64,000 nucleotides of DNA from Kiritimatiellia bacterium (lineage in GTDB: Bacteria; Verrucomicrobiota; Kiritimatiellia; CAIQIC01; Lenti-01), in contig JAXGNL010000001.1 in assembly GCA_040768005.1 (NCBI GenBank), positions 7,008 through 71,007 of the forward strand, read 5' to 3'. Below the pieces are notes generated by a model. That model searched no databases, was not told the DNA's origin, and saw only the letters and a program-made list of their open reading frames with translations. The position numbers and the translations under genes were made by a program. Of this stretch, positions 31,341 to 47,315 are shown piece after piece (the first letter of the stretch is position 1; each line of letters begins with the position of its first letter).

Positions 31341-33965
31341 ATGAACAGCGACCAATTGACAACCAAGGCCCAGGAGGCGCTGCGGGAGGCCCAGCGGCTT
31401 GCCGCGGACCATCATCACGGCGAGGTGGACACCACGCACCTCGTCCTGGCGCTGGTCCGGCAGGAGGGCGGCGTCGTGCCGTCGATTCTGGAGCGCATCG
31501 GGGTGAAATCCGCGCTGTTTGCGGATGTACTGGAGCGGCAGCTGGCGTCGCGTCCGCAGGTGCAGGGCGAAGGCCTGCAGCGGGGCGTGTCGCGGGAGCT
31601 GCAGACGACGCTGGAGGCGGCGGCGAAGCTCGCGGCGCAGATGAAGGACGAATACATCAGCGCGGAGCACCTGTTTCTGGCGGCGCTGGGGCGCAAGCAC
31701 GGCGACGTGGCGCAGGCGGCGGGCGGACTGGGGATCACGGTGGACACGGTGCTGCAGGCCCTGCAATCGGTGCGCGGCAGCCGGCGGGTGACGGACGAGG
31801 CTCCCGAAGACAAGTACGAGGCGCTGAAAAAGTACGGGCGGGACCTGACGGACGACGCCCGCAAGGGCAAGCTCGACCCGGTGATCGGGCGGGACGCGGA
31901 AATCCGCCGGGTGGTGCAGGTGCTGTCGCGCCGGACCAAGAACAACCCGGTGCTGATCGGCGAACCCGGCGTGGGCAAGACGGCGATCGCGGAAGGGCTG
32001 GCGCGGCGGATCGTGGCCGGGGACGTGCCGGAGGGGCTGAAGAACAAGCGGGTGGTGGCGCTGGACCTCGGCGCGATGCTGGCGGGAGCGAAATACCGCG
32101 GGGAATTCGAGGACCGCTTCAAGGCGTTCATCAAGGAAGTCGTGGACAGCGCGGGGGCGATTGTCCTGTTCATTGACGAACTGCACACGCTGGTGGGGGC
32201 GGGCAAGGCGGAAGGGGCGGTGGACGCCTCCAACATGATCAAGCCGGCGCTGGCGCGCGGCGAGCTGCGCTGCGTGGGGGCGACGACCCTGGACGAATAC
32301 CGCAAGTACATCGAAAAAGACCCGGCCCTGGCGCGGCGGTTCCAGCCGGTGCTGGTGGACGAGCCGAGCGTGGAAGACACGGTGGCGATCCTGCGCGGGC
32401 TGAAGGAGCGCTACGAGGCGCATCACGGCGTGCGCATCCAGGACGGCGCGCTGGTGGAGGCGTCCAAGCTTTCCCACCGCTATATCTCCGACCGGTTCCT
32501 GCCGGACAAGGCGATCGACCTGGTGGACGAGGCGGCCAGCCGCCTGCGAATGGAGATCGACAGCATGCCGGTGGAGATCGACGAGCTGGAGCGGCGCATC
32601 ATGCAGCTGGAGATCGAGCGCGAGGCGCTGAAGAAGGAAAAGGACGCGGCGTCGAAGCAGCGGCTGAAGGCGCTGGAAAAGGATCTCGCGGAGCAGCGGG
32701 AGAAAAGCGCGGCGCTGAAAGCCCACTGGGAACGCGAAAAAGAGATCATCGGCGCGATTCGCGGGGGCACTGCGGAACTCGACGCGCTGCGCACTGAGCA
32801 GGAGCAGGCGCAGCGCCGAGGCGAATACGAAAAGGCCGCCGAAATCCAGTATGGCCGGTTGCCGGCGGCAGAAAAAAAGATTCAGCAGGCCCAGGCCGCG
32901 CTGGCGGAACTGCAAAAAGGCCAGCGCATGCTGCAGGAGGAGGTCACGGCGGAAAACATCGCCGAGGTGGTGGCGGCGTGGACGCACATTCCGGTGAGCA
33001 AGCTGCTGGAGGGCGAGAAGGACAAGCTCCTGCGGATGGAAGACCGCCTGCGGGAGCGGGTGGTGGGGCAGGACGAAGCGGTCGAGGCGGTTTCGCGGGC
33101 GGTGCGCCGCTCGCGGGCGGGGCTTCAGGATCCGAACCGTCCGATCGGGTCGTTCATTTTCCTGGGGCCGACGGGCGTGGGCAAGACCGAGCTGGCGCGG
33201 GCGCTGGCGGAGTTCCTGTTCGACGACGATCAGGCCATGGTGCGCATCGACATGAGCGAATACATGGAGAAGCACTCCGTCAGCCGCCTGATCGGCGCGC
33301 CTCCGGGCTACGTGGGCTACGAGGAGGGCGGTGCACTGACGGAACACGTGCGCCGCAAGCCGTATTCGGTGGTGCTGTTCGACGAGATCGAAAAGGCGCA
33401 TCCGGACGTGTTCAACGTGATGCTGCAGATCCTCGACGACGGGCGGCTGACGGACGGGCAGGGGCGCACGGTGGATTTCAAGAACACGGTGCTGATTCTG
33501 ACGAGCAATCTCGGCAGTTCGGTGATCCAGGAGACGCTGGAAAAGCATCCGAACCTGGTCCGCGGCGACGCGGCCTACGACGACATGGAGAAACAGGTGC
33601 TGGCGGCGCTGCGGCTGAGCTTCCGACCCGAATTCCTGAACCGCGTGGACGAAATCATCCTGTTCCGGAGCCTGGGTATCGAGCAGCTGCGCCGGATCGT
33701 GCAGATCCAGCTTTCCCGCGTGCGCGGATTCCTGGCGGAACGCAGCATCCGGCTGGAGGTGACGGAAGCCGCTGCCGAAAAACTGGCGGGAGAGGGCTAC
33801 GACCCGGCGTTCGGCGCGCGGCCTCTCAAGCGCGTGATCCAGCGGATGGTGCTGGACGAACTCGCCACGAAAGTGCTGGCGGGCGAGATTCCCGACGGCG
33901 CGACGGTCGAGGCCGACTTCGATCCGGACCATCCGGACAAGATGGCCTTCACGGTCAGGGCTTGA
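31341..33965 (+). CDS. clpB: ATP-dependent chaperone ClpB
   Basis: 874 aa. Two AAA+ modules ([15 protein letters not shown] and [15 protein letters not shown]) flank a long coiled-coil M-domain. [13 protein letters not shown] is also present. Confidence 0.95.
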
Positions 33966-34080
33966 CCTGATTCACCCACGACACAAGGTTGTGGGGGGCT
34001 GCGGGCGGGAGGGGCCGCGAAAAGCTGACCTGATTCATCCGCGGGACAAGCCAGCGGGGTGTGAGGGCGGTTTTCGCGCC

Positions 34081-34212
34081 AAAACAGCAAAAAAATGCAT
34101 AAAATTGGCCAAAATGGCCAGAAATGGGGGGCAAAATGGCCAAAAAGCCATAAAATGGCCCAAAATGGCGGTATTTTTGCGATTCATTGAAAAAAATCAT
34201 GAAAATTGGGTC
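34081..34212. repeat. helically phased A-tract / AAAATGGCC iteron-like array
   Basis: A-tracts start at 34081, 34089, 34101, 34111, 34122, 34133, 34142, 34152, 34162, 34190 and 34202. The core is five to six degenerate AAAATGGCC units with a ~10 bp period. Confidence 0.75.
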
Positions 34213-34350
34213 TTTATAAGTCAATCATTACAATTGTTCTTCCTTTTTATATAATTCATAATATACTGCAATACATAAAGATGCGGACATAAATCTAGGT
34301 GTTGAACATCTTGTGGAATTCTAGCAGTAATATAATATTGCGTCATGGTC

Positions 34351-34379
34351 TTGACATCAGTGCGGTATTCTGATACTGT
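34351..34379 (+). promoter_or_regulatory. candidate sigma70-type promoter of the R-M operon
   Basis: TTGACA (34351-34356), 17 nt, TACTGT (34374-34379), ending 8 nt before the ATG at 34388. This would give a near-leaderless transcript. No SD is visible. Confidence 0.3.
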
Positions 34380-34387
34380 GTTGGACA

Positions 34388-34969
34388 ATGAAAGTTCGAG
34401 ATGTCAGTGAAATCCGCACGGGGCACGGCTTCCGGGAACGGCTCCAGAGCCAGCCGGAAGGCGAGTATCGGGTGATCCAGCCGAAAAACATCGGCATGAA
34501 TGGACTGGTTTCTTTCGACAAGGGGGAGCCGTTGCGGATGGATGCGGTTGCGCCGAGGGTTCTGCGTCCGAAAGAGGTTCTATTGCTCAACCGCGGTCGT
34601 TTTTGCGCGGCCGTTTTCGAGCCGGAGGATGCCGGGCCATGGATTGTGCCGTCCTCGGTGCTAGTCCTGACCCTGAAGTCGGACCGGGTGCGGCCGGACT
34701 ACGTGGCGTGTTTTTTCAATTCCGCCCATGGGCAGGCGCTGCTGCAACGCCATTGCGAGCAGACCACGGTGCCGTACATCAGTGCGCAGACGCTGGGCGA
34801 CATCGAGATGCCGGTGCCCTCACTGGTCCGCCAGGATGCGCTGGTGGCGTTGGACCGGGCGGCCGCGAAGCAGGCGCGCCTGTTCGGCCGGAAGCAGGAA
34901 TTGATCCGGCAGATTTTGAACCATGAATTGACGAGCACGATGCAAGCGACAACCGGGAGCGAGCCATGA
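34388..34969 (+). CDS. hsdS: half-size type I restriction specificity subunit (single target-recognition domain)
   Basis: 193 aa with one TRD-like region followed by an S-subunit conserved helix (PVPSLVRQDALVALDRAAAKQARLFGRKQELIRQIL). ATGA overlap with hsdM. Confidence 0.6.
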   Translation: MKVRDVSEIRTGHGFRERLQSQPEGEYRVIQPKNIGMNGLVSFDKGEPLRMDAVAPRVLRPKEVLLLNRGRFCAAVFEPEDAGPWIVPSSVLVLTLKSDRVRPDYVACFFNSAHGQALLQRHCEQTTVPYISAQTLGDIEMPVPSLVRQDALVALDRAAAKQARLFGRKQELIRQILNHELTSTMQATTGSEP

Positions 34970-36483
34970 AAGAACCGAAGGCCTACAGCCAGGACCAATT
35001 GAACCAGACCCTGTGGGATGCCGCGAACTCCTCCCGGGCCAACGTGGATGCCGCAATCTACAAGGACTATGCCCTGCTGTTTCTGTTCTACAAATACATC
35101 AGCGATCTCCACAAGCACGAGGTGGAGAAACTGGCGAAGCGGTACGGGAAGGACCAGGACCGGATCGCCATGCGCCTGAAAAAATTCCGTTTTGTGCTGC
35201 CGAAGGGAACGAGTTTCGCGGAGGTGTACAAGAAAAAGAGCGAGGACAACATCGGCGAACTGATCAACATCGCCCTGCATGCCATAGAAGACGCCAACGG
35301 CGACCGGCTGGAAGGGCTGGTGTCGATCGACTTCAACTCCGATGCGGTGCTGGGGCGGACCGAGCAGCGCAACAAGATGCTCCGGAATCTGATGGACAGT
35401 TTCGCCAAGATGGATCTGACGCTGGCGGGCGATGACGTGATCGGCAACGCCTACATGTACATGATCGAGCGGTTCGGGTCCGATGCCGGGAAAAAGGCGG
35501 GGGAGTTCTTCACGCCGCATTCCGTGGCGGCGCTGGTGGCGAAACTGGCCGCGCCGCGGCCCGGCTGGCGCATCTGCGATCCGGCCTGCGGGTCGGGCGG
35601 CCTTCTGCTGCTGGCGGGAGCCGAAATCGAGGCGCAGGGGTCGAAGGATTACGCGCTCTACGGGCAGGAAAGCATCGGGTCCACCTACAACCTCGCCCGG
35701 ATGAACATGTTCCTGCACGGCAAGGATTCGGCGCGCCTGGAATGGGGCGACACGCTGAATCATCCGCTCCTCAAAGAGGGCGATTCGCTGATGAAGTTCG
35801 ACCTGGTGCTGGCCAATCCGCCCTTCTCGCTGAAAAAATGGATGGGGGACAGCACCGAGAACGACCCGTACAACCGCTTCCACCGCGGCCTGCCGCCGAA
35901 AACCAAGGGCGACTATGCGTTCATCAGCCACATGGTCGAGACGGCCAAGGCCGGGGAAGGCAAGGTGGTGGTGATTGTGCCGCACGGGGTGCTGTTCCGC
36001 GGGGCCGCCGAAGGCCGGATCCGGAAGTGCCTGCTGGAGGAAAACCTGGTGGATGCGGTGATCGGCCTGCCGTCGAACCTCTTCCAGACGGCCGCCATTC
36101 CCGTCGCCATCCTGATCCTCGACCGGTCCCGGGAGGCGGGCGGCAGGAACGAAAAGCGCAAGGATGTCCTGTTTGTCGAAGCCTCCAGGCTCTTCAAACC
36201 CGGGAAGGCCCGGAATTATCTGGAGCCGGAGCACATCGCCCGGATTCTGGACGTGGTGCGGAAGCGGAAGGATGTCGAAAAGCTCTGCCGCGTGGTTCTG
36301 CCGGAGGAAATCCAGGAAAACGACTACAACCTCAACATCACCCGCTATGTGGACACCTTCGAGGAAGAGGAGGCGGTGGACATCAAAGCCAATCTGAGGG
36401 AACTGGTCCAAATCGATGCCGAACTGAAGGTGCTGGAAAAGGAAATGGCCGGGCATCTCAAAGCGCTGGGGCTGGTGAATTGA
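34966..36483 (+). CDS. hsdM: type I restriction-modification system DNA methyltransferase subunit
   Basis: HsdM N-terminal domain (YKDYALLFLFYKYISD), AdoMet motif ICDPACGSGGLLL, catalytic LANPPFS. Confidence 0.9.
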   Translation: MKEPKAYSQDQLNQTLWDAANSSRANVDAAIYKDYALLFLFYKYISDLHKHEVEKLAKRYGKDQDRIAMRLKKFRFVLPKGTSFAEVYKKKSEDNIGELINIALHAIEDANGDRLEGLVSIDFNSDAVLGRTEQRNKMLRNLMDSFAKMDLTLAGDDVIGNAYMYMIERFGSDAGKKAGEFFTPHSVAALVAKLAAPRPGWRICDPACGSGGLLLLAGAEIEAQGSKDYALYGQESIGSTYNLARMNMFLHGKDSARLEWGDTLNHPLLKEGDSLMKFDLVLANPPFSLKKWMGDSTENDPYNRFHRGLPPKTKGDYAFISHMVETAKAGEGKVVVIVPHGVLFRGAAEGRIRKCLLEENLVDAVIGLPSNLFQTAAIPVAILILDRSREAGGRNEKRKDVLFVEASRLFKPGKARNYLEPEHIARILDVVRKRKDVEKLCRVVLPEEIQENDYNLNITRYVDTFEEEEAVDIKANLRELVQIDAELKVLEKEMAGHLKALGLVN

Positions 36484-36484
36484 A

Positions 36485-36624
36485 CCGCAGAGGACGCCAA
36501 GGAACGCAGAGGAATTTAAGAGGGTTGTCACAATGAAAAAACAACGGCATGGAACCTCCGCGGGCCTCTGCGCCCTCTGCGGTGGAAGAGGATAACCGCT
36601 GAGGACGCCAAGGAAGGCTGAGGG
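36485..36624. repeat. REP-like hairpin repeats (ACGCAGAGG-type 9-mers), left flank of the GxxExxY cassette
   Basis: Forward CCGCAGAGGACGCCAAGGAACGCAGAGG (36485-36512), reverse CCTCCGCGGGCCTCTGCGCCCTCTGCGG (36555-36582), forward CCGCTGAGGACGCCAAGGAAGGCTGAGGG (36596-36624). A ~70 bp homolog lies at 37007-37077. Confidence 0.7.
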
Positions 36625-36627
36625 AAG

Positions 36628-37092
36628 ATGATGAAAGAGCTTACGGGTCAGATTATTGCTGCAGCAATGAAGGTGCATTCGCAGTTGGGTCCGGGACTTC
36701 TGGAATCGGCATATGAGGCGTGTCTGGAGTATGAACTCAAGAAACAGAGGCTGAACGTTGAGCGGCAGAAGTTATTGCCGGTAGTCTATGACGAGGTGAA
36801 GCTGGATTGCGGTTACCGAATTGACCTGCTGGTTCAGAATCAGGTCGTTCTGGAATTGAAGGCAGTCGATCAAGTGGCACCCATTCACGAGGCCCAGCTT
36901 CTTTCCTATCTGAAGATGTCAGGCTGTCAGGTTGGGCTTCTCATCAACTTCAATGTTCTGCATCTGCGGGATGGCATCAAACGCCTTGTGAACCAATATA
37001 CAGAATCTCCGCGAACCTCTGCGTCCTCTGCGGTGGAAGAAGTTGAACCGCCGGGGACGCAGCGGAGCGCAGAGGGGGGGGGATTGCGATGA
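36628..37092 (+). CDS. GxxExxY protein (PD-(D/E)xK nuclease superfamily)
   Basis: GLLESAY is the GxxExxY motif. YRIDLLVQNQVVLELKAV is a D..ExK-like core. The C-terminal tail (ESPRTSASSAVEEVEPPGTQRSAEGG) is encoded by the right-hand hairpin repeat. Confidence 0.8.
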   Translation: MMKELTGQIIAAAMKVHSQLGPGLLESAYEACLEYELKKQRLNVERQKLLPVVYDEVKLDCGYRIDLLVQNQVVLELKAVDQVAPIHEAQLLSYLKMSGCQVGLLINFNVLHLRDGIKRLVNQYTESPRTSASSAVEEVEPPGTQRSAEGGGLR

Positions 37093-38063
37093 GTAAAAAA
37101 CCGACTGATATTGTTCTCTACAAGAGCCGGGATGGCTCTGTTCAGCTGGATGTGCAGATGGAAGAGGAAACCGTTTGGCTTTCCCAAAAGCAAATGGCTC
37201 AGCTTTTCGGCAAAGACACCGATACGATCGGCCTTCATATTCGTAACGCTTATAAAGAGAGGGAGTTGGATGAGTTAGCAACTGCCGAGGAATCCTCGGT
37301 AGTTCGGCGGGAGGGAAACCGGAAGGTCACTCGTAAAATCCGCTTTTACAACCTGGATGTCATTATTTCCGTGGGCTACCGTGTGAACTCCAAGCGCGGC
37401 ACGGAATTCCGGATCTGGGCCACGAACATCCTCAAACAACACCTGGTGCAGGGCTACAGCGTCAATGAAAAGCGCTTGAAGGCCCTGAAGCAGACCCTGA
37501 AGCTGGCGTCCGACATCACCAAGCGCAACCTCCTTTCCGGCGATGAAGCGGCCGCCCTCCTGCAAACGGTGACCGAATATGCCTATGCGCTGGACCTGCT
37601 GGACGATTACGACCACCAACGGGTGGTCCTCCGCAAGACCTCGCCCCGCCCGGCAAAGCCGGTGACCTATGAGGAGGTGATGAGCCTGGTCGAACAGATG
37701 CGGGTACATTTCGGTGATTCGGCGGTGTTCGGACGGGAAAAAGACCGGAGCCTGCACAGTTCGCTGAATGCGGCGATGCAGGGGTTCGGCGGCAAGGACC
37801 TGTACCCCTCGGTCGAAGAAAAGGCCGCCCATCTTCTCTACTTCCTGGTGAAGAACCACAGTTTTGTGGACGGCAACAAGCGCATCGCCGCCGCCGTGTT
37901 CCTGCGCTTCGCGGAAAAGAACAAGCTGCTTTACGGCCAAGAGGGCCAAAAACGCATCGCCGACAACGCCCTCGTCGCCATGACCCTCATGATCGCCGAA
38001 AGCAAGCCCAAGGAAAAAGACGTCATCACCGCCATGGTCACCAACCTGATTGCGGGGAAATGA
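37089..38063 (+). CDS. RhuM-like N-terminal domain fused to a Fic/Doc domain
   Basis: N-terminus VWLSQKQMAQLFGKDTDTIGLHIRNAY...ISVGYRVNSKRGTEFRIWATNILKQ (RhuM family). C-terminus HSFVDGNKRIAAAVF (Doc-type HxFxDGNKR motif). ATGA overlaps on both sides. Confidence 0.75.
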   Translation: MSKKPTDIVLYKSRDGSVQLDVQMEEETVWLSQKQMAQLFGKDTDTIGLHIRNAYKERELDELATAEESSVVRREGNRKVTRKIRFYNLDVIISVGYRVNSKRGTEFRIWATNILKQHLVQGYSVNEKRLKALKQTLKLASDITKRNLLSGDEAAALLQTVTEYAYALDLLDDYDHQRVVLRKTSPRPAKPVTYEEVMSLVEQMRVHFGDSAVFGREKDRSLHSSLNAAMQGFGGKDLYPSVEEKAAHLLYFLVKNHSFVDGNKRIAAAVFLRFAEKNKLLYGQEGQKRIADNALVAMTLMIAESKPKEKDVITAMVTNLIAGK

Positions 38064-39397
38064 GCGAGTCAATGCAAGGACGGGTTCAACTGATGCCTCC
38101 TAACGCCATGCCGGGATTCAGGAAAACAAAGGTGGGGTGGATTCCAGAGGGATGGGTGCACTCGGTAATCGGTGAAGCAACGCATTACCTGACCAGTGGC
38201 TCTCGTGGGTGGTCGCAATACTACAATAATACAGGTGAACTGTTTGTACGGATCACGAATCTAACCCGAGAGGCTATCCGTTTGGACTACGCTGATTGTT
38301 GCTTTGTGAAACTGCCATCCGGCACCAGCGAGGGTACTCGAACTCGTCTTAAGGCTGGTGACATACTGATATCCATCACAGCGGATCTTGGCATTATTGC
38401 ATATTTCTCTTCGGAAGAGCCGTACCCGCTTGCATATGTAAACCAGCATGTGGCCTTGCTAAGACTTTATGATAAAAACATTAGCTCCAAGTTCGTTGCT
38501 TATCAACTTGCGGCCCCTCATGCGCAGCGCCGTTTTCAGGAAATCACAGATCAGGGAGCAAAAGCTGGACTGAATCTGGCCTCAATTAGGTCGTTTCCCG
38601 TAGTTCTCCCCTCCCTCCCCGAGCAGGAGGCGATAGCGGGGGTGCTGGAGTGCTGGGACAAGGCGATTCGGGGGGGTGAGCGGAAGATCGAGAAAAAGCG
38701 GCAGGTCAAGAAGGGGTTGATGCAGCAGCTCCTCAGCGGCCAACGCCGTTTGCCGGGGTTCAAGGGGAAGTGGGGAGAAGTGAAACTGGGGGATATTGCG
38801 GCACCCATCAAAACAGTGGTCGGTGAAAAGGTCGTCACGCCGATGAGTTTGTCAGCTGGGATCGGCTTTGTGCCTCAGGAAACGAAATTCGGCAAGGACA
38901 TTTCAGGGGCCCAGTATCAACGCTATACGCTGCTGACCAAAGGGTGCTTTGCTTACAACAAGGGGAATTCGAAAAAGTATCCTCAGGGGTGCATCTATCT
39001 GCTCGAAGAGCATGATGAAGTGGCGGTTCCGAATGTCTTTGTATGCTTCAAACTGGACCCTTCTGCGGCTGTCGATGAGTATTTCCGCCAAGTGTTCTTA
39101 GCCAACATGCATGGGCCCGCGCTTGTGCGTTTTATCAACAGTGGTGTCCGCAACAACGGACTATTGAATCTTACCGCCTCGAATTTCTTTCAGATCAAGC
39201 TGCCGTTGCCGCCCCTGCCCGAGCAACGCGCCATTGCGGCGGTTTTATCGGCGGCGGATGCGGAAATTGCGGCGTTGGAGCGGAAGCTGGGGGCATTGCG
39301 GGAGCAGAAGCGGTTTTTGCTGAACAACCTGGTGACGGGGGCGATCCGGTTGCCGGCCTTCTGCCGCCGTCGCACGCACCGCAAGGAACGAAAATGA
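38060..39397 (+). CDS. hsdS: type I restriction specificity subunit (two target-recognition domains)
   Basis: 445 aa. Two TRDs are separated by conserved helices LPSLPEQEAIAGVLECWDKAI and LPLPPLPEQRAIAAVLSAADAEIAALERKL. Confidence 0.9.
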   Translation: MSESMQGRVQLMPPNAMPGFRKTKVGWIPEGWVHSVIGEATHYLTSGSRGWSQYYNNTGELFVRITNLTREAIRLDYADCCFVKLPSGTSEGTRTRLKAGDILISITADLGIIAYFSSEEPYPLAYVNQHVALLRLYDKNISSKFVAYQLAAPHAQRRFQEITDQGAKAGLNLASIRSFPVVLPSLPEQEAIAGVLECWDKAIRGGERKIEKKRQVKKGLMQQLLSGQRRLPGFKGKWGEVKLGDIAAPIKTVVGEKVVTPMSLSAGIGFVPQETKFGKDISGAQYQRYTLLTKGCFAYNKGNSKKYPQGCIYLLEEHDEVAVPNVFVCFKLDPSAAVDEYFRQVFLANMHGPALVRFINSGVRNNGLLNLTASNFFQIKLPLPPLPEQRAIAAVLSAADAEIAALERKLGALREQKRFLLNNLVTGAIRLPAFCRRRTHRKERK

Positions 39398-41190
39398 CCT
39401 CGCGAAGCACACCGAACAAACTGACGCGCGCCGATTTGTTGGATGCGGCCGGGCCGGTATACTTCGCGCGGGGCGAGGGCTACCATGCCGCGGGGGCGGT
39501 GCAGGCGGTGCGCGAGCGGAACGGGGTGGTGCGCGCCACGGTCCGGGGCGCACAGGCGTACAAGACGACGCTGGCGTTTATCGACGGTCACGTGGATGGC
39601 CACTGTTCGTGCCCCTTGGGGCGGGACGGCGAGTTTTGCAAGCACCTGGTGGCAACGGGCCTGGCCTGGATGGCGGAACAGGCCGGCGGCGAGGCGGCAA
39701 CGGAGGAGACCCGGTCCGTCACGCCGAAAGAGATCGAGGCGTATCTGTTGAAGCTGAAACGGCCGGAGCTGGTGCGGTTGGTGATGGAGCAGGCGGATCA
39801 GGACGATGATTTCCATGCCATGCTCAAGCTGCGGGTGGCGGCCGCCGGGGCGTCGTCGGACACAAAGGAAATGCGGCAGGTGCTGCGTCAGGCGATGACG
39901 ATCCGGGGCTTTGTGGAATGGCGCGGGACGGGCGCATACACGCGCAGGGTGGACCGGGTGCTGGATCAGCTTCGCACGATGCTGACGCCCCGGCACGCGG
40001 CGGCGGTGATCGAGCTGGCGGAATACGGTCTGGATTTATGGGAGAAGAACATCGAGCGAATCGATGATTCGGACGGCTGCATGGGGATGATCCGCGACGA
40101 GTTGCATGAGCTTCATCTGGAGGCCTGCCGCCTGGCCCGGCCGGACCCGGTCGCCTTGGCGGACCGCCTGACCCGGCGCGCCATCGAAACCCACTGGGAC
40201 ATGTTTCATGGGTTTGCCGACACCTACCGGGAGATTCTGGGGGAGGCGGGCCGGGCGCGGCATCGCGAGATTGTCGAAGCGGAGTGGGATGCCCTGCCCA
40301 CGCTGGCGCCGGGCGAGGAAGACCCGGAATGCTTTGGCCGCACCGGCACGATCGAGAACATGATGCTGGCGATGGCGGAAGAAGAAAAGGACTTGGATTG
40401 GATCATCCGCGTTCTCAGCCGGGACCTCTCCAGCTCGTATGACTATCTTCGGATTGCGCAACGCTGCCGCGAGGCGCGCCAATATGCGCTGGCGCGCGAC
40501 TGGGCGGAACGGGGCCTGGCGGCGGCCCTCGACCTCCGCACGTCCGACCTCCGGAGTTTCCTGGCGGAGGAATATCTGCGCGCCAAGCGTCCCGATGATG
40601 CGATGGCCATGGTCTGGGCCAATTTCGAGGGGCGGCCCGATTTGAAAACCTATCAGGATCTCGCCGCGCTGGCGCAGAAGCTGAAGGGCTGGGAAGATTG
40701 GCGGCCGAAGGCGTTTGCGCACATCCGCCAGACGATCCAGGCCGCCAAGAGCAAGCATGAACGGCAAGCGGATGGCCATTCGGCCGGGGGGCGCGGCGCC
40801 GCCTTTCGCTGGGTTCCTCCGGCGCCGGACCATTCGTTGCTGGTGGCGGTTTTGCTGTGGGAGAAGCGGGAGGAGGAGGCGTGGGAGGAAGCGCAAGCGG
40901 GAGGCTGCGCGGATCACTTGTGGCTGGACCTGGCCCAACGCCGGGAGGAGAAGCATCCGGCCGATGCCGCCGGGATTTATCGCCGACTGGTGAAGCCCTT
41001 GATTGAGGCGGGCAACAATCCGGCATACGAACAGGCGGTTGTGTTTCTGGGACGGGCCCATGGGCTCATGAAGACGCTGGGCCAGGAAGCGGAGTTTCGC
41101 GTGTGGTTGCTGCAACTCAAGGTTGAATACCGGCGCAAGCGCAATTTCATCAAATATGTCGAGCGCACGCCATGGGGGAAGGGCGCGTGA
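39394..41190 (+). CDS. SWIM zinc-finger protein with a large C-terminal helical domain
   Basis: SWIM signature HCSCPLGRDGEFCKHLVA (CxC...CxH) near the N-terminus, followed by ~480 aa of helical-repeat-like sequence. ATGA overlap with the hsdS stop. Confidence 0.75.
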   Translation: MTSRSTPNKLTRADLLDAAGPVYFARGEGYHAAGAVQAVRERNGVVRATVRGAQAYKTTLAFIDGHVDGHCSCPLGRDGEFCKHLVATGLAWMAEQAGGEAATEETRSVTPKEIEAYLLKLKRPELVRLVMEQADQDDDFHAMLKLRVAAAGASSDTKEMRQVLRQAMTIRGFVEWRGTGAYTRRVDRVLDQLRTMLTPRHAAAVIELAEYGLDLWEKNIERIDDSDGCMGMIRDELHELHLEACRLARPDPVALADRLTRRAIETHWDMFHGFADTYREILGEAGRARHREIVEAEWDALPTLAPGEEDPECFGRTGTIENMMLAMAEEEKDLDWIIRVLSRDLSSSYDYLRIAQRCREARQYALARDWAERGLAAALDLRTSDLRSFLAEEYLRAKRPDDAMAMVWANFEGRPDLKTYQDLAALAQKLKGWEDWRPKAFAHIRQTIQAAKSKHERQADGHSAGGRGAAFRWVPPAPDHSLLVAVLLWEKREEEAWEEAQAGGCADHLWLDLAQRREEKHPADAAGIYRRLVKPLIEAGNNPAYEQAVVFLGRAHGLMKTLGQEAEFRVWLLQLKVEYRRKRNFIKYVERTPWGKGA

Positions 41191-42203
41191 ACGCGGCGAC
41201 GTACGATCCGCAGATTCATCATCGCCGGTCCATTCGGTTGAAGGGGCATGATTATGCCGGGGGCGGGGTGTATTTCGTGACGATTTGCGCGCATCGGGAG
41301 TTCATCGGATGGGCGGGGGGCCATCCATTTGGCGGAGGGGCGGAACGCATTCCGTCCTCTTCCGGGGCGACATGCGAGTCGCGTTCTGCTGGGGCGACAT
41401 GCGTGTCGCCCGTACGGGAGATGATTGTGGATGAATGGCGGCGTTGCGGCATGATTCGCGATGATGTATTTCCCGGCGAATTCGTGGTGATGCCGGATCA
41501 TGTGCATGGATTGATTCGCATTCGGAAGGGGCCGTCCGAATTGGGGCATGTCATCGGCGCATTCAAAGCCGCCGCATCCCGCCGCATCCGTAGGGGCGAC
41601 ACGCCTGTCGCCCGCCCGCCTGTCGCCCCATTTGCCACGCCGCCCCGGAAGATCCGCATCTGGCATCGCAATTATTATGAGGCCATCGTCCGCACGCCGG
41701 AGGCGGCGGAGAAGATTGCCGGGTATATCCGCATGAATCCGTGGCGGTGTGTCACGGATTTCGGCGACGGCCTGCGCGGCATGGGGAACCCGGCGTTGTG
41801 GAATCTGCCCAAGCTGGGGGTTTTGTGCAGCCGCAATGCGCCGCGCCCGGAAAGCCTGCCCGCCGCCGCCGTCTATTTCGGGGGATTCCATTCGCCGATG
41901 GAGAAGGACCTCTTTGGCCGGTTGCTGGAGCGGAAGCAGCCGCTGATCTGGTGTCCCGCCTGGGGGCTGGAGCATGCGGCGTTCGCGCCCGGGGTGCTCG
42001 AAGCCCTCGAACAGAACCGGATGCTCCTTCTCGAAATGCGCAACCGCGACGGCGATCTGGCCGCCGCCGAAGAGCGCAACCGGTTTGTGATTGAGAATGC
42101 CGATGCGCTGTGGCTGCCGCATGTCGCGCCCGGGGGGATGCTCGACCGGCTGATGACTGCACTTGATGCGCACGGCAAAACCCTGGGAGAACCATCCTCA
42201 TGA
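41172..42203 (+). CDS. HUH/Y1 (RAYT/IS200-like) nuclease domain fused to a DprA/SLOG-like domain
   Basis: N-terminal half: HDYAGGGVYFVTICAHRE, HUH motif MPDHVHGLI, Tyr motif WHRNYYEAIVR. C-terminal half: GVLCSRNAP...VYFGGFHSPMEKDLFGRLLERKQPLIWCPAWGL...ERNRFVIENADALWLPHVAPGG resembles DprA-like Rossmann proteins. The start overlaps the SWIM gene by 19 nt, and the stop forms an ATGA overlap with hsdR. Confidence 0.55.
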   Translation: MGEGRVNAATYDPQIHHRRSIRLKGHDYAGGGVYFVTICAHREFIGWAGGHPFGGGAERIPSSSGATCESRSAGATCVSPVREMIVDEWRRCGMIRDDVFPGEFVVMPDHVHGLIRIRKGPSELGHVIGAFKAAASRRIRRGDTPVARPPVAPFATPPRKIRIWHRNYYEAIVRTPEAAEKIAGYIRMNPWRCVTDFGDGLRGMGNPALWNLPKLGVLCSRNAPRPESLPAAAVYFGGFHSPMEKDLFGRLLERKQPLIWCPAWGLEHAAFAPGVLEALEQNRMLLLEMRNRDGDLAAAEERNRFVIENADALWLPHVAPGGMLDRLMTALDAHGKTLGEPSS

Positions 42204-45200
42204 GCGAGACGCCACGAACTCACATCGGCGATGCGGCGGATGTCGCCCGCGCCTCACTGGACCTGCCGGATTTCGACGAGGCGTCGGTTTCCCAGATCCC
42301 GGCGTTGCTGGAGCTGGTGAACCTGGGGTACACGTATCTGCCGCGGGCGGACGTCGCGAGCATGCGGGAAAGCGCGTCGCAATATGTGCTGCGGGATATC
42401 GCTTTCGCGGCGCTGCGCCAGATCAACGGGGAGAACATCTCGGACAAGAGCATCCGCGATGCGGTATTCGAAATGGAGCAGATCCATCTGGGCGGCGGGG
42501 TGTTCCGCGCCTCGGAGGAAGTGTATGCGCTGCTGCTGGCGGGCCGGTCGGTGCCGGAGCTGGCCGGGGGGCGGCGGGTGTCGCCGCAGATGCGGTTTGT
42601 GGATTTCCGGGAGCCGGAGAACAACGCGTTCCATGTCTGCGCGGAATTCGAGATCGCCGAGGGGCATGACCGTCGGCTGGACATCGTTCTTTTCGTGAAC
42701 GGGTTTCCGTTCGCGGTGATCGAGAACAAGAAGGAGTCGGTGAAGGTTGGCGAGGCGGTGGCGCAGATGGTGCGGAACCAGGGGCGGAACGAGACGCCGA
42801 AGTTCTTCCTGTTCCCCCAGATTCTCGTGGCGACCAACGTGCGGGAGCTGAAATACGGGACGATGCTGACGCCGGCGCGGTTTTATGCGCAGTGGAAGGA
42901 GAAGGATGCCGATCCCCAGGTGGTGGATGCGGCGGTGGCGGCGGTGATCCACAAACCGGTGGCCCCGGAGGTGGTGCGGCGGATTGCCGGCGACCTGATC
43001 CGGCAGGAGTATGTGCCGCCGGAGGCGCGGACGGTGACGGAGCAGGATCGGGGCATCCACGGCCTGCTGCGCCCGGAGCGCCTGCTGGATCTGGTGCGGA
43101 ACTTCATTCTCTACGACAACAACGTCAAGAAAATCGCCCGGTATCCGCAGGTTTTCGCGATCAAAAAGGCCATGAGAGGGCTGAAGACCTTCGACCGGAA
43201 CGGGCGTCGCAAGGGCGGGCTGATCTGGCATACGCAGGGCTCGGGGAAAAGCCTGACGATGGTGATGCTGGTGAAGTGCCTGATCGATGATCCGGAGATC
43301 GTGCTGCCGCGCGTGGTGGTGGTGACGGACCGGCGGGACCTGGACCGGCAGATCAGCGACACCTTCGCGGCCTGCAACATCAAGAAGGACGTGGTGCGCA
43401 CGCGGAGCGCCAAGGAACTGCTGCGCCTGATCCGGGACAAGGACCAGCGGGTCGTTACGGCCCTGATCCACAAGTTCGAAGCCTCGAAGGCGGAGCGGGA
43501 CTTTGTGGATGACGACCCGAACCTCTTCATCCTGATCGACGAAGCGCACCGGACCCAGGGCGGGCAGGCGAATACAGAATTGAACCTGATTTTGCCCAGG
43601 GCCTGCCAGATCGGATTTACGGGCACGCCGCTGATGAAAAAGGAGAAGGTCAAGGGCCGGAAGGGCCCGGCCCACGTGGTCAAGGCCAGCGAGCGCAAGT
43701 TCGGGGGGATCATCGACGCCTACACGATCTCCGAAGCGGAGGCGGATGGCGTGGTGCTCCCGCTGATCTATCAGCCGCGGTTCGTGGAGCAGACGGTCCA
43801 GCAGGCGCTGCTGGACCGGTTTTATGACCAGATCACCCGGGAGCTGACGGACAAGCAGAAGAAGGATTTGCAGAAGAAGTTCAATTCGTCCCAGATCGTG
43901 GAGGAGACGTCCCAGCGGATCGAGACGATTTCATTGGACATTCTGGAACATTTTCGCCCGTTCCGGAACACCGGGCTGAAGGCCCAGATCGTGGCGCCGT
44001 CCAAATACGCGGCGGTGATGTTCCGGAAGGCCTTCGACCTGCTGGGGGAAGACGCGGTCGAGGTGATCATTTCGGACACGGCGGACCAGGAGACGGACGA
44101 TCAGCTTCCGGCGCACAAACGGGAGGTGGCGGAATGGCTGGAGGAGGAAAAGCACCGGCACGGCGCCTCGCTGGAGGCCCGCGAGAAAAAGCTGATCAAG
44201 GAGTTCCGGGACAATCCCGAGGGCGTACGCATGCTGATCGTGGTGGACAAGCTGCTGACCGGGTTTGATGCGCCGCGCAATTCCTTCCTGTATCTGGCGA
44301 AACAGCTCAAGGACCACAATCTCCTGCAGGCGATCGCGCGAGTGAACCGCCTGTTCGACGGGGACGAAGGCCATGAGGCCAAGGTCAACGGGTTCGTGAT
44401 CGATTATTCCAAGAACGCAAAAAATCTGCGCGATGCGATGGAGCTGTTCTCCAGCTACGACCCGGAGGACGTGGACGGGGCGCTGCTGAACACCGGGGAG
44501 AAGATCCGGGAGCTGGAGCGCGTGGTCCAGGATTTGCATGCGATGTTCAATGGCGTCCGGGACAAACGGGATACCGAGGCGTATGTCCGGGTGCTGGAAG
44601 AAAGCGTGGTGGCGCGCGAGCGGTTCTACGAGCTGGTGAACGAGTTCATCAAGCAGTTCGCGACCTGCCGGATGCTGCCCGACTTCGCGCAGCAGTTCCC
44701 GGCCGACAAGCTGCACCGGTATCAGAGCGACCTGAAGAAGTTCGTGGAGTTGAAGAAAATCCAGAAAATCAAGAACGCGGAAGAAATCGATTTCTCGAAG
44801 TACGAGGACCAGATCCGGCGGATTCTGGACAAGTATGTTTCCTCGGAATACGTGATCGAGCTGTCCCGGCCCCTGTTGATCCGGGAGTCCCGGGAGTTCA
44901 ATGCCTACATCGAGAATGCGGAGCGCGGGCTTTCGGACAAATCGAAGGCGGAGGCCATTGCCGCCCAAACCCAGCGGACCATCCGCGAGAATCTCCACCG
45001 GGATCCCGAATTCTACAGGCGGTTCAGCGAAAAGATCGAAAAGCTGATTGCCGATCTCCGGGCGGCCAAGAAAGAAGACCTGAAGGCGCTCTTGGAACGC
45101 GCCCGGGATGTCCAGGGAAGGGTTGCTGCCTATGAGGCGAACGACATTCCGGTGGCGATCCGGCGACAGACGGCGCTGCACCCGTTTTATCGCAGCCTCC

Positions 45201-45457
45201 AGTCCGGACTGAAGGCCCATGCGGTGCCGGAAGAGCGGCTTTGCGAGATGACCCAGGCCATGGCCGGGCGGATTGAGCCGCACAAGATCGTGGATTGGTG
45301 GCAGAACATCGAGGTGGAACGGCAGGTGCGGACGGATCTGGAGGATTACCTGTTTGATGTGGTGAAAGAGAAAATCGGCATTCCTCTGTCCGCCGGGGAA
45401 ATTGAACGGCTGACCTCGAAGGTCTGGGAGCTGGCCGTGGAGAACCGGTCGCCATGA
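42200..45457 (+). CDS. hsdR: type I restriction enzyme R subunit
   Basis: 1085 aa. PD-(D/E)xK-like RLDIVLFVNGFPFAVIENKK, helicase motifs WHTQGSGKSLTMV and ILIDEAHRTQGG, and VVDKLLTGFDAP. Confidence 0.9.
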   Translation: MSETPRTHIGDAADVARASLDLPDFDEASVSQIPALLELVNLGYTYLPRADVASMRESASQYVLRDIAFAALRQINGENISDKSIRDAVFEMEQIHLGGGVFRASEEVYALLLAGRSVPELAGGRRVSPQMRFVDFREPENNAFHVCAEFEIAEGHDRRLDIVLFVNGFPFAVIENKKESVKVGEAVAQMVRNQGRNETPKFFLFPQILVATNVRELKYGTMLTPARFYAQWKEKDADPQVVDAAVAAVIHKPVAPEVVRRIAGDLIRQEYVPPEARTVTEQDRGIHGLLRPERLLDLVRNFILYDNNVKKIARYPQVFAIKKAMRGLKTFDRNGRRKGGLIWHTQGSGKSLTMVMLVKCLIDDPEIVLPRVVVVTDRRDLDRQISDTFAACNIKKDVVRTRSAKELLRLIRDKDQRVVTALIHKFEASKAERDFVDDDPNLFILIDEAHRTQGGQANTELNLILPRACQIGFTGTPLMKKEKVKGRKGPAHVVKASERKFGGIIDAYTISEAEADGVVLPLIYQPRFVEQTVQQALLDRFYDQITRELTDKQKKDLQKKFNSSQIVEETSQRIETISLDILEHFRPFRNTGLKAQIVAPSKYAAVMFRKAFDLLGEDAVEVIISDTADQETDDQLPAHKREVAEWLEEEKHRHGASLEAREKKLIKEFRDNPEGVRMLIVVDKLLTGFDAPRNSFLYLAKQLKDHNLLQAIARVNRLFDGDEGHEAKVNGFVIDYSKNAKNLRDAMELFSSYDPEDVDGALLNTGEKIRELERVVQDLHAMFNGVRDKRDTEAYVRVLEESVVARERFYELVNEFIKQFATCRMLPDFAQQFPADKLHRYQSDLKKFVELKKIQKIKNAEEIDFSKYEDQIRRILDKYVSSEYVIELSRPLLIRESREFNAYIENAERGLSDKSKAEAIAAQTQRTIRENLHRDPEFYRRFSEKIEKLIADLRAAKKEDLKALLERARDVQGRVAAYEANDIPVAIRRQTALHPFYRSLQSGLKAHAVPEERLCEMTQAMAGRIEPHKIVDWWQNIEVERQVRTDLEDYLFDVVKEKIGIPLSAGEIERLTSKVWELAVENRSP

Positions 45458-46188
45458 CGGCGGAACTGTCGAGTACCGGGGTGCCCATCCGCCAGTTGAC
45501 GTTTGACCATCACGCGCTGGACTATTGCCTGATCCGGGAGGACCGGAAAACCCTGTCGGCAACGGTATTTCCGAGCCGGGTCCTGCTGGTGAAGGCCCCG
45601 CGGGAGGTCCAAGACGCGCGTATCGACGACTTTCTGCACCGGAAACTGTGCTGGATCCTGAAACAGCAGCGCTATTTTGCCCAGTTCAAGATTCCGGGGA
45701 AGAAACAATATGTGAGCGGAGAGACCTTCCGGTACCGGGGGCGGGGCTACAAGCTGCTGGTTCGCAGGGGGGGGGCGGAGGAACGGGTGTCCTTGCGGCA
45801 CGGGGTGTTGACGGTATTCACGACGTCGACCGGCACCCCGTCCCATGTGAAGGGGTTGCTGGACCGATGGTATGCGGAACGGGCCCGGCACGTATTCGGC
45901 GAGCGGCTGGCGGTTTGCTCGGGGCTCTTTGATTATGAGGAGACACCCGGCCTGGTGATTCGCAAGGCGACCCGGCGGTGGGGCAGCTTTTCCCGCAAAA
46001 CCCGGCGGATCATGCTGAACCTGGATTTGATCAAGGTGGCGGCCCGATATCTGGACTATGTCATCATCCATGAGTTGTGCCATGTGGCGCACAAGAACCA
46101 CGATGGGGCCTTTTACCGCCTCATGGAATCGAAGCTCCCGCAATGGGAGAAGCTCAAGACCGAGCTGGAGCTGAATCTGTTTGGCTGA
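45454..46188 (+). CDS. YgjP-like (DUF45/M48-type) zinc metallopeptidase
   Basis: WGSFSRKTRRIMLNLDLIKVAARYLDYVIIHELCHVAHKNH (HExxH). A common accessory gene of type I R-M loci. ATGA overlap with the hsdR stop. Confidence 0.75.
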   Translation: MTAELSSTGVPIRQLTFDHHALDYCLIREDRKTLSATVFPSRVLLVKAPREVQDARIDDFLHRKLCWILKQQRYFAQFKIPGKKQYVSGETFRYRGRGYKLLVRRGGAEERVSLRHGVLTVFTTSTGTPSHVKGLLDRWYAERARHVFGERLAVCSGLFDYEETPGLVIRKATRRWGSFSRKTRRIMLNLDLIKVAARYLDYVIIHELCHVAHKNHDGAFYRLMESKLPQWEKLKTELELNLFG

Positions 46189-46227: not shown

Positions 46228-46686
46228 CTACAGTCCGCGGGGAAGCGTGTCGAAACCGGGGCGGGGGTGGCCGCAGTGGAGGCAGGCGGCACGGTGGACG
46301 CTGAGGGGTTTCCCGCAGGCGGGGCAGGCCCAGCGGATTTTTTCGCGGGCGACGAACGCTCGCAGGCCGGCGTCGCGGATGGAGGCGAGATTGTCGAGCA
46401 TGCTCATGCCGTAGCGGGTGCGGTAGCGTTTGTCCAAATCGCGGAGGCGTCGGCAGGGGTAGTCGGGGCAACGGAAGCAGAACCGGTTGGGCCGGCCTTG
46501 CCGGGTGCAGAGCTTGATGGTGCATTGGCGGCAGGCGCCGGCCTTGATCTGATCATCGCGGTGGTTGCAGCCCGGGCACCGGTTTTTCTCCCGGAGGTGG
46601 CCGATGCACAGCGCGCAGTTCATGCCGCAGGGGGCGATCATCGCCGCCTGGATGGGCCGGAGCCGGATGGGGGGCCGTCGGGTCAT
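46228..46686 (-). CDS. Cys-rich DUF3795-like protein
   Basis: 152 aa from MTRRPPIRLRPIQAAMIAPCGMNCALCIGHLREKNRCPGCN..., with many CxxC pairs. The start at 46686 forms an ATGA overlap with the stop of 46683..47021. It lies inside the longer track ORF 46228..47244. Confidence 0.45.
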   Translation of the reverse strand: MTRRPPIRLRPIQAAMIAPCGMNCALCIGHLREKNRCPGCNHRDDQIKAGACRQCTIKLCTRQGRPNRFCFRCPDYPCRRLRDLDKRYRTRYGMSMLDNLASIRDAGLRAFVAREKIRWACPACGKPLSVHRAACLHCGHPRPGFDTLPRGL

Positions 46687-47021
46687 GTGGCCTTCCTCCT
46701 GGGCTTCTTTTTCGCGCCGGGCGGGGGCAGGTCGCGTGCAGTGGCCCGGACGAGGCCGGCGATCCAGTCGCGGTCCTCGAAGGCGTCCTCGATCAGGAAG
46801 TAGTCCTTGGCCCCGGGATAGGGCGGGGCTTCCGTGACATGGCCGATGAAGGCGCGGCCGGCGGGGGTGGGCTTGATGAACAGCTGGTTGTCGCACACGA
46901 GTGCCACGACCTTGCCGTTGCAGTAGAGCGCGTATTCGCCGAACATCTTGCGGAACGAGATGTCGCCCGCCTCCGCCATCTGGTCCGCCAGAAATTCCAT
47001 GAAGCTTGAATCGGTTGCCAT
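46683..47021 (-). CDS. TfoX N-terminal domain family protein
   Basis: FMEFLADQMAEAGDISFRKMFGEYALYCNGKVVALVCDNQLFIK resembles the TfoX/Sxy N-terminal domain. Confidence 0.55.
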   Translation of the reverse strand: MATDSSFMEFLADQMAEAGDISFRKMFGEYALYCNGKVVALVCDNQLFIKPTPAGRAFIGHVTEAPPYPGAKDYFLIEDAFEDRDWIAGLVRATARDLPPPGAKKKPRRKAT

Positions 47022-47116
47022 GGGACCTCCCGTCTTGGAAGATCAGTGTACGGGACGGGAGGCGGGGAGGGAAAGGGGATTTCGGGTTTGTCTGGACGGA
47101 CGAATTGAAACCCCAA

Positions 47117-47315
47117 CCACGGATGGGCGGATCAACCCTTGCCGATGCGCCCGGCGGGCGCGCTGGAACAAGAGAACAGCCGGCTACGGATTTCACGGAT
47201 GATACGGATTCAACCCATAGGTGCCTGTAGCGAATCCGGTTCATCCGTAGCTGAACCGGGTCCCCGCCGGTTATTCCGGGCGGATCCGTCTGTGTTGATC
47301 CGTGTCCATCCGTGG
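47117..47315. repeat. inverted-repeat-bounded non-coding element (REP/MITE-like)
   Basis: CCACGGATGGGCGGATCAAC (47117-47136) is the near reverse complement of GTTGATCCGTGTCCATCCGTGG (47294-47315). Internal copies of the (C/T)ACGGAT motif, or its complement ATCCGT(A/G), occur as CTACGGATTTCACGGATGATACGGATTC and TCATCCGTAGC. Confidence 0.55.

Follow-up and report, generated by a model that had tools for sequence, protein, structure and literature searches.

A type I restriction-modification operon with four embedded passenger genes in a Kiritimatiellia bacterium

In a 64-kb stretch of a Kiritimatiellia genome (contig JAXGNL010000001.1; hereafter the window, whose numbering is used throughout), nine open reading frames (ORFs), all located on the + strand between 34388 and 46188, form a type I restriction-modification (R-M) operon that carries four extra genes. 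Our comparison of this locus with related operons on fetched contigs (designated by L-numbers) suggests that it is, on balance probably, a working type I R-M operon that has turned into a landing pad for unrelated passengers. Two of the passengers, a RhuM-Doc fusion and a SWIM-DUF6880 protein, correspond to published defence candidates, and the embedding of such genes in type I R-M loci is known, while the other two, a GxxExxY protein and a fusion of a Y1 nuclease with a DprA-like domain (Y1-DprA), are self-contained hairpin-bearing cassettes that seem to be undescribed.

Results

The nine genes follow each other in the order half-HsdS (34388-34969), HsdM (34966-36483), GxxExxY (36628-37092), RhuM-Doc (37089-38063), HsdS (38060-39397), SWIM-DUF6880 (39394-41190), Y1-DprA (gene 7; 41172-42203), HsdR (42200-45457) and YgjP (45454-46188). 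The original prediction, which was made from the sequence alone, had described these ORFs and their junctions correctly: six of the eight junctions are exact ATGA start/stop overlaps (34966, 37089, 38060, 39394, 42200 and 45454), at another the genes overlap by 19 nt (41172-41190), and hsdM is separated from the GxxExxY gene by a 144-nt gap with hairpin repeats (36484-36627). Based on our own rough gene calls, 4-nt overlaps were present at 6 of 8 junctions in the locus, whereas in the rest of the window only 4 of the 22 junctions between co-directional genes were of this type (Fisher p=0.007). The domain identities proposed for all nine genes were likewise borne out by searches with Pfam, PADLOC and NCBIfam/TIGR models and by fold matches, and gene 7, announced as a HUH-SLOG-like fusion, was recognized as a RAYT-like Y1 nuclease joined to a DprA-like domain. 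Co-expression of the nine genes from a single transcription unit, as had been postulated, is likely and is supported by promoter and terminator scans, the recurrence of the nine-gene set and the intactness of the genes. In contrast, the argument that such tight coupling marks the passengers as something other than accidental insertions did not hold, since the GxxExxY and Y1-DprA genes are equally coupled in housekeeping operons, a related operon has an empty site between hsdM and rhuM, and the passenger content is variable. Given that coupling of this kind also ties these cassettes to housekeeping genes, it points to co-transcription and not to shared function.

The same nine genes were found at the same place, between clpB and DUF3795/tfoX, with approximately 99% identity in the metagenome contigs L001-L004 and L091. 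Comparison with more distantly related operons indicates a stable core with variable passenger slots. The operon of L006 (HsdM 79% and HsdR 74% identical) has the order half-HsdS, HsdM, Fic, RhuM, DUF6880, a 180-aa gene, HsdS, HsdR and YgjP, whereas L040 (HsdM 83-84% identical) has HsdM and RhuM-Doc sharing an ATGA, followed by a SMODS/AGS-C cyclase, HsdS, Y1-DprA and HsdR. Shorter arrangements are HsdS, DUF6880, Y1-DprA and HsdR in L009, HsdM, GxxExxY, RhuM-Doc, Y1-DprA, HsdS and HsdR in L172, and HsdS, DUF6880, a GxxExxY remnant plus a GxxExxY gene, HsdR and YgjP in L092. Recurrence of the passengers in related R-M operons was thus observed in this comparison of gene neighborhoods, but their content varied and they were also encountered in housekeeping operons. 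The slot between RhuM-Doc and HsdS in L040 (2921-4594 of that contig) is occupied by a SMODS/CD-NTase protein that bears an AGS-C sensor domain, and this slot evidently turns over among defence-type genes. The 180-aa gene behind DUF6880 in L006 was considered as a stand-alone version of the C-terminal domain of gene 7 and rejected, as it has no similarity to it. On L010, hsdR, hsdM and hsdS have been lost, whereas intact Y1-DprA and DUF6880 genes persist, joined by an ATGA in an order opposite to that in the window; this 6.9-kb contig, beside gatC, also retains fragments of YgjP (53 aa) and of RhuM.

At the other end of the scale, the window and L001 are collinear over 21 kb with 98.5-99.3% identity, and blastn revealed exactly two replaced blocks, both with sharp boundaries at conserved motifs. 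The first block (38793-39220) covers the second target-recognition domain (TRD2) of HsdS; the HsdS protein shares 76% amino acid identity with its L001 counterpart, compared to at least 99% for the neighboring genes. The second block (41300-41657, + strand), replaced relative to L001-L003, comprises the Y1 core of gene 7 together with its two REP-like elements and the HUH motif.

The GxxExxY gene encodes a small protein with a PD-(D/E)XK fold (PF13366, 1.7e-44; TIGR04256, 155.8 bits at a cutoff of 35), in which the Pfam domain spans residues 3-120 and the name-giving motif reads G-LLE-SAY, and the gene forms a repeat-bounded cassette. An imperfect hairpin (36484-36512 paired with 36555-36583) and a third copy of its arm (36595-36622) make up the 5' repeat block (36484-36622, + strand). 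A 3' hairpin that had been overlooked in the original prediction is located at 37007-37074 (+ strand; arms 37007-37034 and 37047-37074 with 12 nt between them) inside the 3' end of the ORF, so that the C-terminal tail past the Pfam domain and the run-up to the ATGA at 37089 are encoded by the repeat. The arms of about 30 nt share the inverted core ACCGCAGAGG / CCTCTGCGGT or near variants of it, and the same core was detected beside GxxExxY genes in the unrelated contigs L178 (33-nt arms, 88% complementary), L179 and L175, the latter with 75-nt direct repeats that each contain an inverted pair; analogous but diverged repeats were found in L092. In approximately 2 Mb of fetched DNA the core motif occurred 3.75 times per kb near GxxExxY genes and 0.045 times per kb elsewhere, which corresponds to an 83-fold enrichment. 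The ATGA shared directly by hsdM and rhuM-doc in L040 represents the corresponding empty site, at which the window lineage has an insertion of about 600 nt. Directly upstream of the intact GxxExxY copy in L092, a remnant of a second GxxExxY N-terminus (MSNLIFEKESYAICGAAFEVYK; 2338-2405 of that contig) was observed, suggesting repeated insertion or replacement at one junction.

Outside the related operons, a GxxExxY gene is ATGA-coupled between a miaB-like gene and glnS in a miaB-like/glnS/era/der operon, another is part of a glycosyltransferase operon, and a third is found in an unrelated type I R-M operon (L175-L177) with the order HTH-HsdM, a 74-aa ORF, NYN RNase, GxxExxY, HsdS, DUF1186/SEC-C and HsdR. 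In view of these contexts, the tight coupling is a property of the cassette and does not indicate a partnership with HsdR. The operon on L175-L177 likewise stacks several passengers, the GxxExxY cassette among them. The family is very large, with no assigned function and almost no literature; our searches for publications on GxxExxY/PF13366 turned up nothing relevant, and the terminal-repeat cassette seems to be undescribed. The closest homologues are 65-87% identical, some of them annotated as Bipolaricaulota and one as a Methanophagales archaeon, and multiple transfers of the family have been reported in a published survey (PMC3424549).

Two other interpretations of the repeats were rejected. 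An intrinsic terminator can be dismissed for the 5' hairpin of the gap, as no T-run follows it and it was not listed in the terminator scan, and a long stem enclosing the ORF, as in an intervening sequence (IVS), was not favored by the minimum free energy fold, which prefers two local hairpins (z=-0.9 for the whole region relative to shuffled sequences; z=-2.3 for the 5' region alone). A scan of the whole window with Rfam at gathering thresholds and for tRNAs gave no match, and neither the hairpins of this cassette nor those of gene 7 are explained by a known RNA family.

The most interesting passenger is the 343-aa Y1-DprA protein, which combines an N-terminal RAYT/IS200-like HUH tyrosine nuclease with a C-terminal DprA/SLOG-like Rossmann domain (approximately 41754-42160). 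The HUH motif is encoded at 41499-41507 and the putative catalytic Tyr185, within YIRMNP, at 41724-41726; H110, H112 and Y185 were invariant in 48 sequences. The score of the protein against the RAYT model NF047646 was 55.5 bits and thus below the cutoff of 80. Foldseek searches with an AF2 model (pLDDT 81) matched the N-terminal half to TnpA_REP (4er8) and the Y1 HUH transposases TnpA of ISDra2 and IS608. The C-terminal half matched best to ShosA (8zva), a component of a defence system, and further to DprA (3maj/4ljl) and YpsA. A Pfam search with residues 197-343 at E-values up to 1 gave no match, including none to PF02481 (DprA), while standalone relatives of this domain of about 200 aa do match PF02481, and the C-terminus can therefore be described as DprA-like through its modeled fold and transitive sequence links. 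More than 4,000 homologues were found, the nearest of which are full-length fusions from PVC bacteria; in the sampled loci such fusions were confined to Kiritimatiellota, Lentisphaerota and Verrucomicrobiota. A lookup of the window's gene 7 by exact sequence retrieved no contig. Several old paralogues, 43-46% identical to each other within one metagenome-assembled genome, occur per genome. Gene 7 was therefore rejected as an active IS200/IS605 copy, given these distant paralogues and the lack of external ends; end hairpins outside the gene are absent because its ORF overlaps both neighbors.

Two REP-like elements are located within the coding sequence of gene 7. Element 1 (41392-41415, - strand) consists of GTAC followed by the perfect hairpin GGGCGACA-CGCA-TGTCGCCC; it is accompanied by an imperfect extra copy at 41365-41384 and encodes GATCVSP in a low-confidence loop (pLDDT <50, residues 61-77). 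Element 2 (41590-41629, + strand) comprises GTAG and the hairpin GGGCGACA-CGCC-TGTCGCCC (41594-41613), which is inverted relative to element 1 and followed by a duplicated loop-plus-3'-half-stem at 41617-41629, again in a segment of low model confidence (pLDDT <50, residues 144-152). The units at 41392-41415 (-) and 41590-41613 (+) bracket the HUH-coding segment in a REPIN-like manner. The in-gene hairpins of the family are perfect GC hairpins with the form GGGC-N4-loop-N4'-GCCC, and 65 of 85 carry a GTAG or GTAC foot; in REP sequences the GTAG tetranucleotide is needed for binding and cleavage by TnpA_REP (PMC3479197). Since a covariation test on hairpins preselected as perfect would have been circular, it was dropped in favor of a comparison of densities inside and outside the genes, which yielded 63 hairpins across 46 kb within Y1-DprA genes and 6 across 686 kb beside them, an enrichment of about 150-fold. 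The stems are lineage-specific and yet common to 2-4 sites of one gene, and in-gene hairpins are also present in Y1-only relatives of other phyla. At the second hairpin site the family falls into two classes, one with the hairpin and a 'standard' one similar to these Y1-only relatives, and the gene 7 copies of the window and L001 belong to different classes at this site within an otherwise 99% identical operon. The sequence GGCGACA...TGTCGCC was also considered as a dispersed REP and rejected, as no copy exists outside gene 7 in the 64 kb.

Many of the in-gene hairpin sites show tandem half-stem duplications. In L018, L052, L060, L026 and L020 (between the GxFK and WHRNYYE motifs), 2-5 tandem copies of loop plus half-stem lie beside the hairpins, for example four copies of TGCCTGCCTCGCCCC in L018 and four of GGGGCGAGA in L060, and their translation gives low-complexity peptide. 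Such patterns point to slippage or to recurrent nicking and rejoining at the hairpin. Literature searches combining RAYT with restriction-modification or with DprA, and for COG1451, found nothing relevant.

The remaining two passengers are full-length matches to PADLOC families. RhuM-Doc, with an N-terminal RhuM and a C-terminal Fic/Doc domain (PF13310 and PF02661; motif HSFVDGNKR), corresponds to PDC-S23 (PDLC04965; E=1.4e-133, residues 5-322 on positions 4-324 of the 327-position model), and RhuM/Fic genes are present in every related operon in which the region is visible. SWIM-DUF6880 (PF21810, 8.4e-12) corresponds to PDC-S62 (PDLC05053; E=1.4e-50, residues 5-590 on positions 4-559 of 566) and consists of a SWIM zinc finger (C71, C73, C82, H84), whose Cys/His columns are invariant, followed by a TPR-like helical solenoid. 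Neither domain searches nor the fold matches of its AF2 model (pLDDT 88), which were of the TPR/ZSWIM8 type only, revealed a catalytic domain. Both proteins are thus published single-gene defence candidates, for which anti-phage activity is predicted from their embedding.

The R-M core itself comprises an HsdM that is a predicted type I N6-adenine DNA methyltransferase (PF02384, 1e-95; HsdM_N PF12161; TIGR00497, 263.2 bits at a cutoff of 242.75), an HsdS with two target-recognition domains (PADLOC Specificity_I, 9.5e-80 over residues 21-431; two Methylase_S stretches) and an HsdR endonuclease/translocase with HSDR_N, SWI2_SNF2, ResIII and T1R_D3 domains (TIGR00348, 486.6 bits at a cutoff of 284.55). 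With its N-terminal nuclease and SF2 translocase, HsdR completes the set that defines a type I system. Upstream, and ATGA-coupled to hsdM, is the 193-aa half-HsdS with one target-recognition domain (PADLOC Specificity_I, E=1.6e-13; weak Pfam Methylase_S match); L006 has a small ORF at the equivalent place, and in L026 a match resembling half-HsdS lies ahead of hsdM. The operon ends with a YgjP-like zinc metallopeptidase (PF01863, 4.7e-49, 167.6 bits at a cutoff of 26; also weak WLM and SprT matches) with the HExxH motif HELCH, after which a convergent gene follows. Of the five passengers originally proposed, four remained as such, while YgjP is a regular partner of HsdR; it follows hsdR in every case in which this end could be seen (L006, L011, L038, L060 and L092), unrelated R-M families included.

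Upstream of the operon, sigma-70-like promoter matches are confined to an AT-rich leader (34196-34357), and the best of them (34227-34255, + strand; ATTACA-17-TATAAT, 10 of 12 positions, a consensus match only) is the sole + strand promoter-like site between 33800 and 46600. Scans with E. coli-type models, whose consensus may not fit this phylum, found no promoter-like site inside the operon, and terminator-like sites there occurred at chance level only, which is weak evidence for this phylum. The leader is preceded by a phased array of six AAAATGGCC-like units spaced at 10-11 nt (34081-34169), which is kept in L001 at about 98.5% identity and could represent bent DNA, a regulator array or an iteron-like site; array and leader (34170-34387) have a local GC content of about 0.35-0.45 compared to 0.65 for the genome. 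Directly past the clpB stop, at 33963-34059, two direct copies of TGACCTGATTCAYCC... are each followed by a short GC hairpin; these might act as terminators in tandem or mark an old boundary at which the R-M island was inserted. The operon is flanked by clpB on one side and DUF3795/tfoX/gatCAB on the other, and its location looks chromosomal; the best homologues are in Kiritimatiellota, such as Pontiella and Tichowtungia. Judging from identity with L001 (15036-15829), TfoX_N (competence regulator-like) and DUF3795 genes at 46228-47244 and downstream converge on the operon end. The TfoX_N neighbor is of note only with regard to the DprA-like domain of gene 7.

Discussion

From the anatomy of the locus, the domains and their conservation, the variable passengers, the empty site and the enriched repeats, we infer the following biochemical activities and defence roles. 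A single promoter near 34.2 kb probably drives the whole operon. HsdM and HsdS would methylate a bipartite target and HsdR would restrict unmethylated DNA, while the half-HsdS would probably dimerize to provide a second specificity, and YgjP, by analogy with WLM/SprT-type proteases, might turn over or release HsdR. A first layer of passengers would consist of RhuM-Doc and the SWIM-TPR protein DUF6880, single-gene defence candidates that move between defence loci; the former could combine a sensor domain with a Doc-type kinase toxin that causes abortive infection, and the latter could be a non-enzymatic sensor or scaffold. GxxExxY and Y1-DprA would form a second layer of self-contained, selfish-looking cassettes. 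In this scenario the GxxExxY cassette was inserted exactly at the former hsdM-ATGA-rhuM junction, and Y1-DprA would be a RAYT-type nuclease for single-stranded hairpin DNA fused to a DprA-like binder of single-stranded DNA (ssDNA), carrying its own GTAG/GTAC-footed hairpins in frame. The start/stop overlaps would allow such inserts to persist without polar effects.

Several observations weigh against this interpretation of the locus as a landing pad. Purely selfish hitchhiking is difficult to reconcile with the strong bias of Y1-DprA towards R-M loci (about 35% of loci) and with the retention of GxxExxY in the same slot of related R-M operons at 81-87% identity, and each of the two genes may contribute to R-M function. 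In addition, attenuation or processing of the transcript at the 5' hairpin between hsdM and the GxxExxY gene could split the operon, and the promoter and terminator scans depend on an E. coli-type consensus that is perhaps inapplicable to the phylum. The context counts given below are based on 43 sampled Y1-DprA and 80 sampled DUF6880 loci, obtained by tblastn with the window proteins and evaluated with rough gene calls.

The R-M bias leads to the possibility, which we consider rather doubtful, that Y1-DprA, as a domesticated RAYT-type nuclease, truly serves type I R-M systems as an accessory and is not a hitchhiker. In this role it could target single-stranded or hairpin DNA beyond the reach of the type I enzymes, for example ssDNA phages or DNA arriving by conjugation or transformation, it could modulate the restriction of incoming DNA, or it could drive the exchange of cassettes in the hsd locus. 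Sixteen of the 43 full-length loci lie within 5 kb of hsdM, hsdR or hsdS and are scattered over the family tree; the adjacent R-M genes are co-oriented with Y1-DprA and belong to at least five families with HsdM proteins of 28-84% identity, differing gene orders and, in one case, an EcoEI-type HsdR. Moreover, all of the ten commonest neighbor Pfam families are type I R-M domains, and Y1-only relatives in cyanobacteria and Chromatiales are embedded as well (L077, L082, L085 and L087). The invariant HUH and Tyr residues, the best fold match to the defence-system component ShosA and the fact that HsdS TRD2 and the Y1 core are the only replaced blocks between operons of about 99% identity are also consistent with an accessory role. 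Furthermore, the family would have been missed by embedding screens because it is transposase-like, as mobility-associated proteins such as transposases were excluded from the published screen (bioRxiv 10.1101/2024.01.29.577857). However, about 60% of the sampled members are not located near R-M genes, some of them being tightly coupled in plainly housekeeping operons (epimerase/Lnt, RmuC and DctP), no PADLOC model matches Y1-DprA, and the hairpins with their tandem half-stem duplications look like traces of selfish DNA. We have not found the R-M bias and the internal REP-like hairpins described in the searchable literature. A bolder and rather improbable extension of this idea is that Y1-DprA constitutes an unrecognized R-M accessory or defence module in which the REPIN-like hairpins serve as an exchangeable cis switch or specificity determinant, comparable to the target-recognition domains of HsdS, and that GxxExxY represents an undescribed class of mini mobile elements targeting operon gene junctions.

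A reading that extends the original prediction of a composite defence island sees the nine genes as one integrated, multi-layer defence machine, in which the passengers are dedicated partners of the restriction enzyme and are kept in fixed ratios by translational coupling. This view is in line with the six ATGA overlaps and the 19-nt overlap, the identical operon in L001-L004 and L091, the purifying selection on all genes, the presence of RhuM/Fic in all related operons with a visible region and the reappearance of Y1-DprA and GxxExxY in other families of type I R-M operons. Nevertheless, passenger sets differ where HsdM and HsdR are still 74-84% identical, GxxExxY and Y1-DprA show the same coupling in housekeeping operons, and Y1-DprA and DUF6880 outlasted the loss of the R-M genes in L010. 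DUF6880, which had been considered as an R-M-specific partner, was rejected as such, since just 7 of the 80 sampled loci have any R-M neighbor, its commonest neighbor cluster, an HsdR-like ATPase, likewise occurred in 7 loci, and the gene is mostly solitary. In Thiocystis violacea (L007/L008, 10001-11746), a 36% identical, co-oriented SWIM/DUF6880 gene is inserted between trpE and trpG-trpD-trpC of the trp operon, a further instance of a defence candidate inside a housekeeping operon. The notion of a composite defence operon hence stands insofar as two passengers are PADLOC candidates and one operon is likely, but functional integration is not supported by the coupling; it is unproven for the passengers as a whole and unlikely for GxxExxY, and an integrated machine is accordingly an unlikely account of the locus. 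Finally, that the passengers are neutral or decaying junk, tolerated since its removal would break the translational coupling of the R-M genes, is highly improbable: the lower GC3 of GxxExxY (0.58), RhuM-Doc (0.73) and Y1-DprA (0.73) relative to hsdM/hsdR (0.84-0.85) and host genes (0.8-0.9) and the variable presence among relatives would agree with it, but the decay named in the original prediction as evidence against itself was not seen, as every ORF is full length relative to its family model, catalytic and zinc-binding motifs are kept, and pN is well below pS for each passenger (dN/dS 0.07-0.38; orthologues at 53-75% identity), which largely refutes it.

The landing-pad interpretation carries the lesson that a start/stop overlap proves membership in an operon but not a shared function. 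Y1-DprA bears on the roles of domesticated RAYT nucleases and may add a class of R-M accessories that screens discard as 'mobilome', while the terminal repeats of the GxxExxY cassette, together with the pair of empty and filled sites, make its mobility testable.

Small ORFs bounded by stems are known inside rRNA intervening sequences. The GxxExxY cassette resembles them as a small ORF with inverted-repeat flanks that sits within a transcribed unit and leaves it intact, but it has no rRNA context and its two local hairpins are preferred over an enclosing stem. Gene 7 shares the catalytic fold and presumably the recognition of ssDNA hairpins with IS200/IS605 elements, from which it differs in having no subterminal end hairpins outside its ORF, no near-identical copies and no TnpB partner. 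Its C-terminus has the DprA/SLOG Rossmann fold of DprA and ShosA, albeit as the Rossmann core only and in a form that PF02481 misses in the window protein; domain and PADLOC scans of the operon found no ShosT toxin partner of a ShosTA system, and the resemblance to ShosA is therefore one of fold.

Nested genes are often found in type I R-M, BREX and DISARM loci (Payne et al., bioRxiv 10.1101/2024.01.29.577857), with PrrC in type I R-M loci as an example labeled almost exclusively embedded, and the PADLOC PDC families were derived from this phenomenon by 'guilt-by-embedding' as predictions that are not validated (bioRxiv 10.1101/2024.01.29.577857). Since PDC-S23 and PDC-S62 stem from this screen, the embedding as such was already known. 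The locus resembles the published cases in its extra genes between hsd genes, its two full-length PDC matches and the SMODS/AGS-C cyclase in the equivalent slot of a relative, and differs from them in that four passengers share one operon and that GxxExxY and Y1-DprA lack a PADLOC model. With regard to RAYT/TnpA_REP proteins and their REP/REPIN sequences (Messing et al. 2012, PMC3479197; Bertels et al. 2017, PMC5581495), gene 7 is similar in its Y1 HUH fold with 4er8 among the top matches, its HUH motif and YIxxNP tyrosine, and its GC-rich hairpins with a GTAG/GTAC foot, two of which are arranged as inverted copies as in a REPIN. In contrast to those sequences, which flank their genes or are dispersed in extragenic DNA, the hairpins of gene 7 are located inside its own coding sequence, and gene 7 further stands apart by its score below the NCBIfam cutoff, its old paralogues, its fusion to a DprA-like domain and its frequent embedding in R-M operons.

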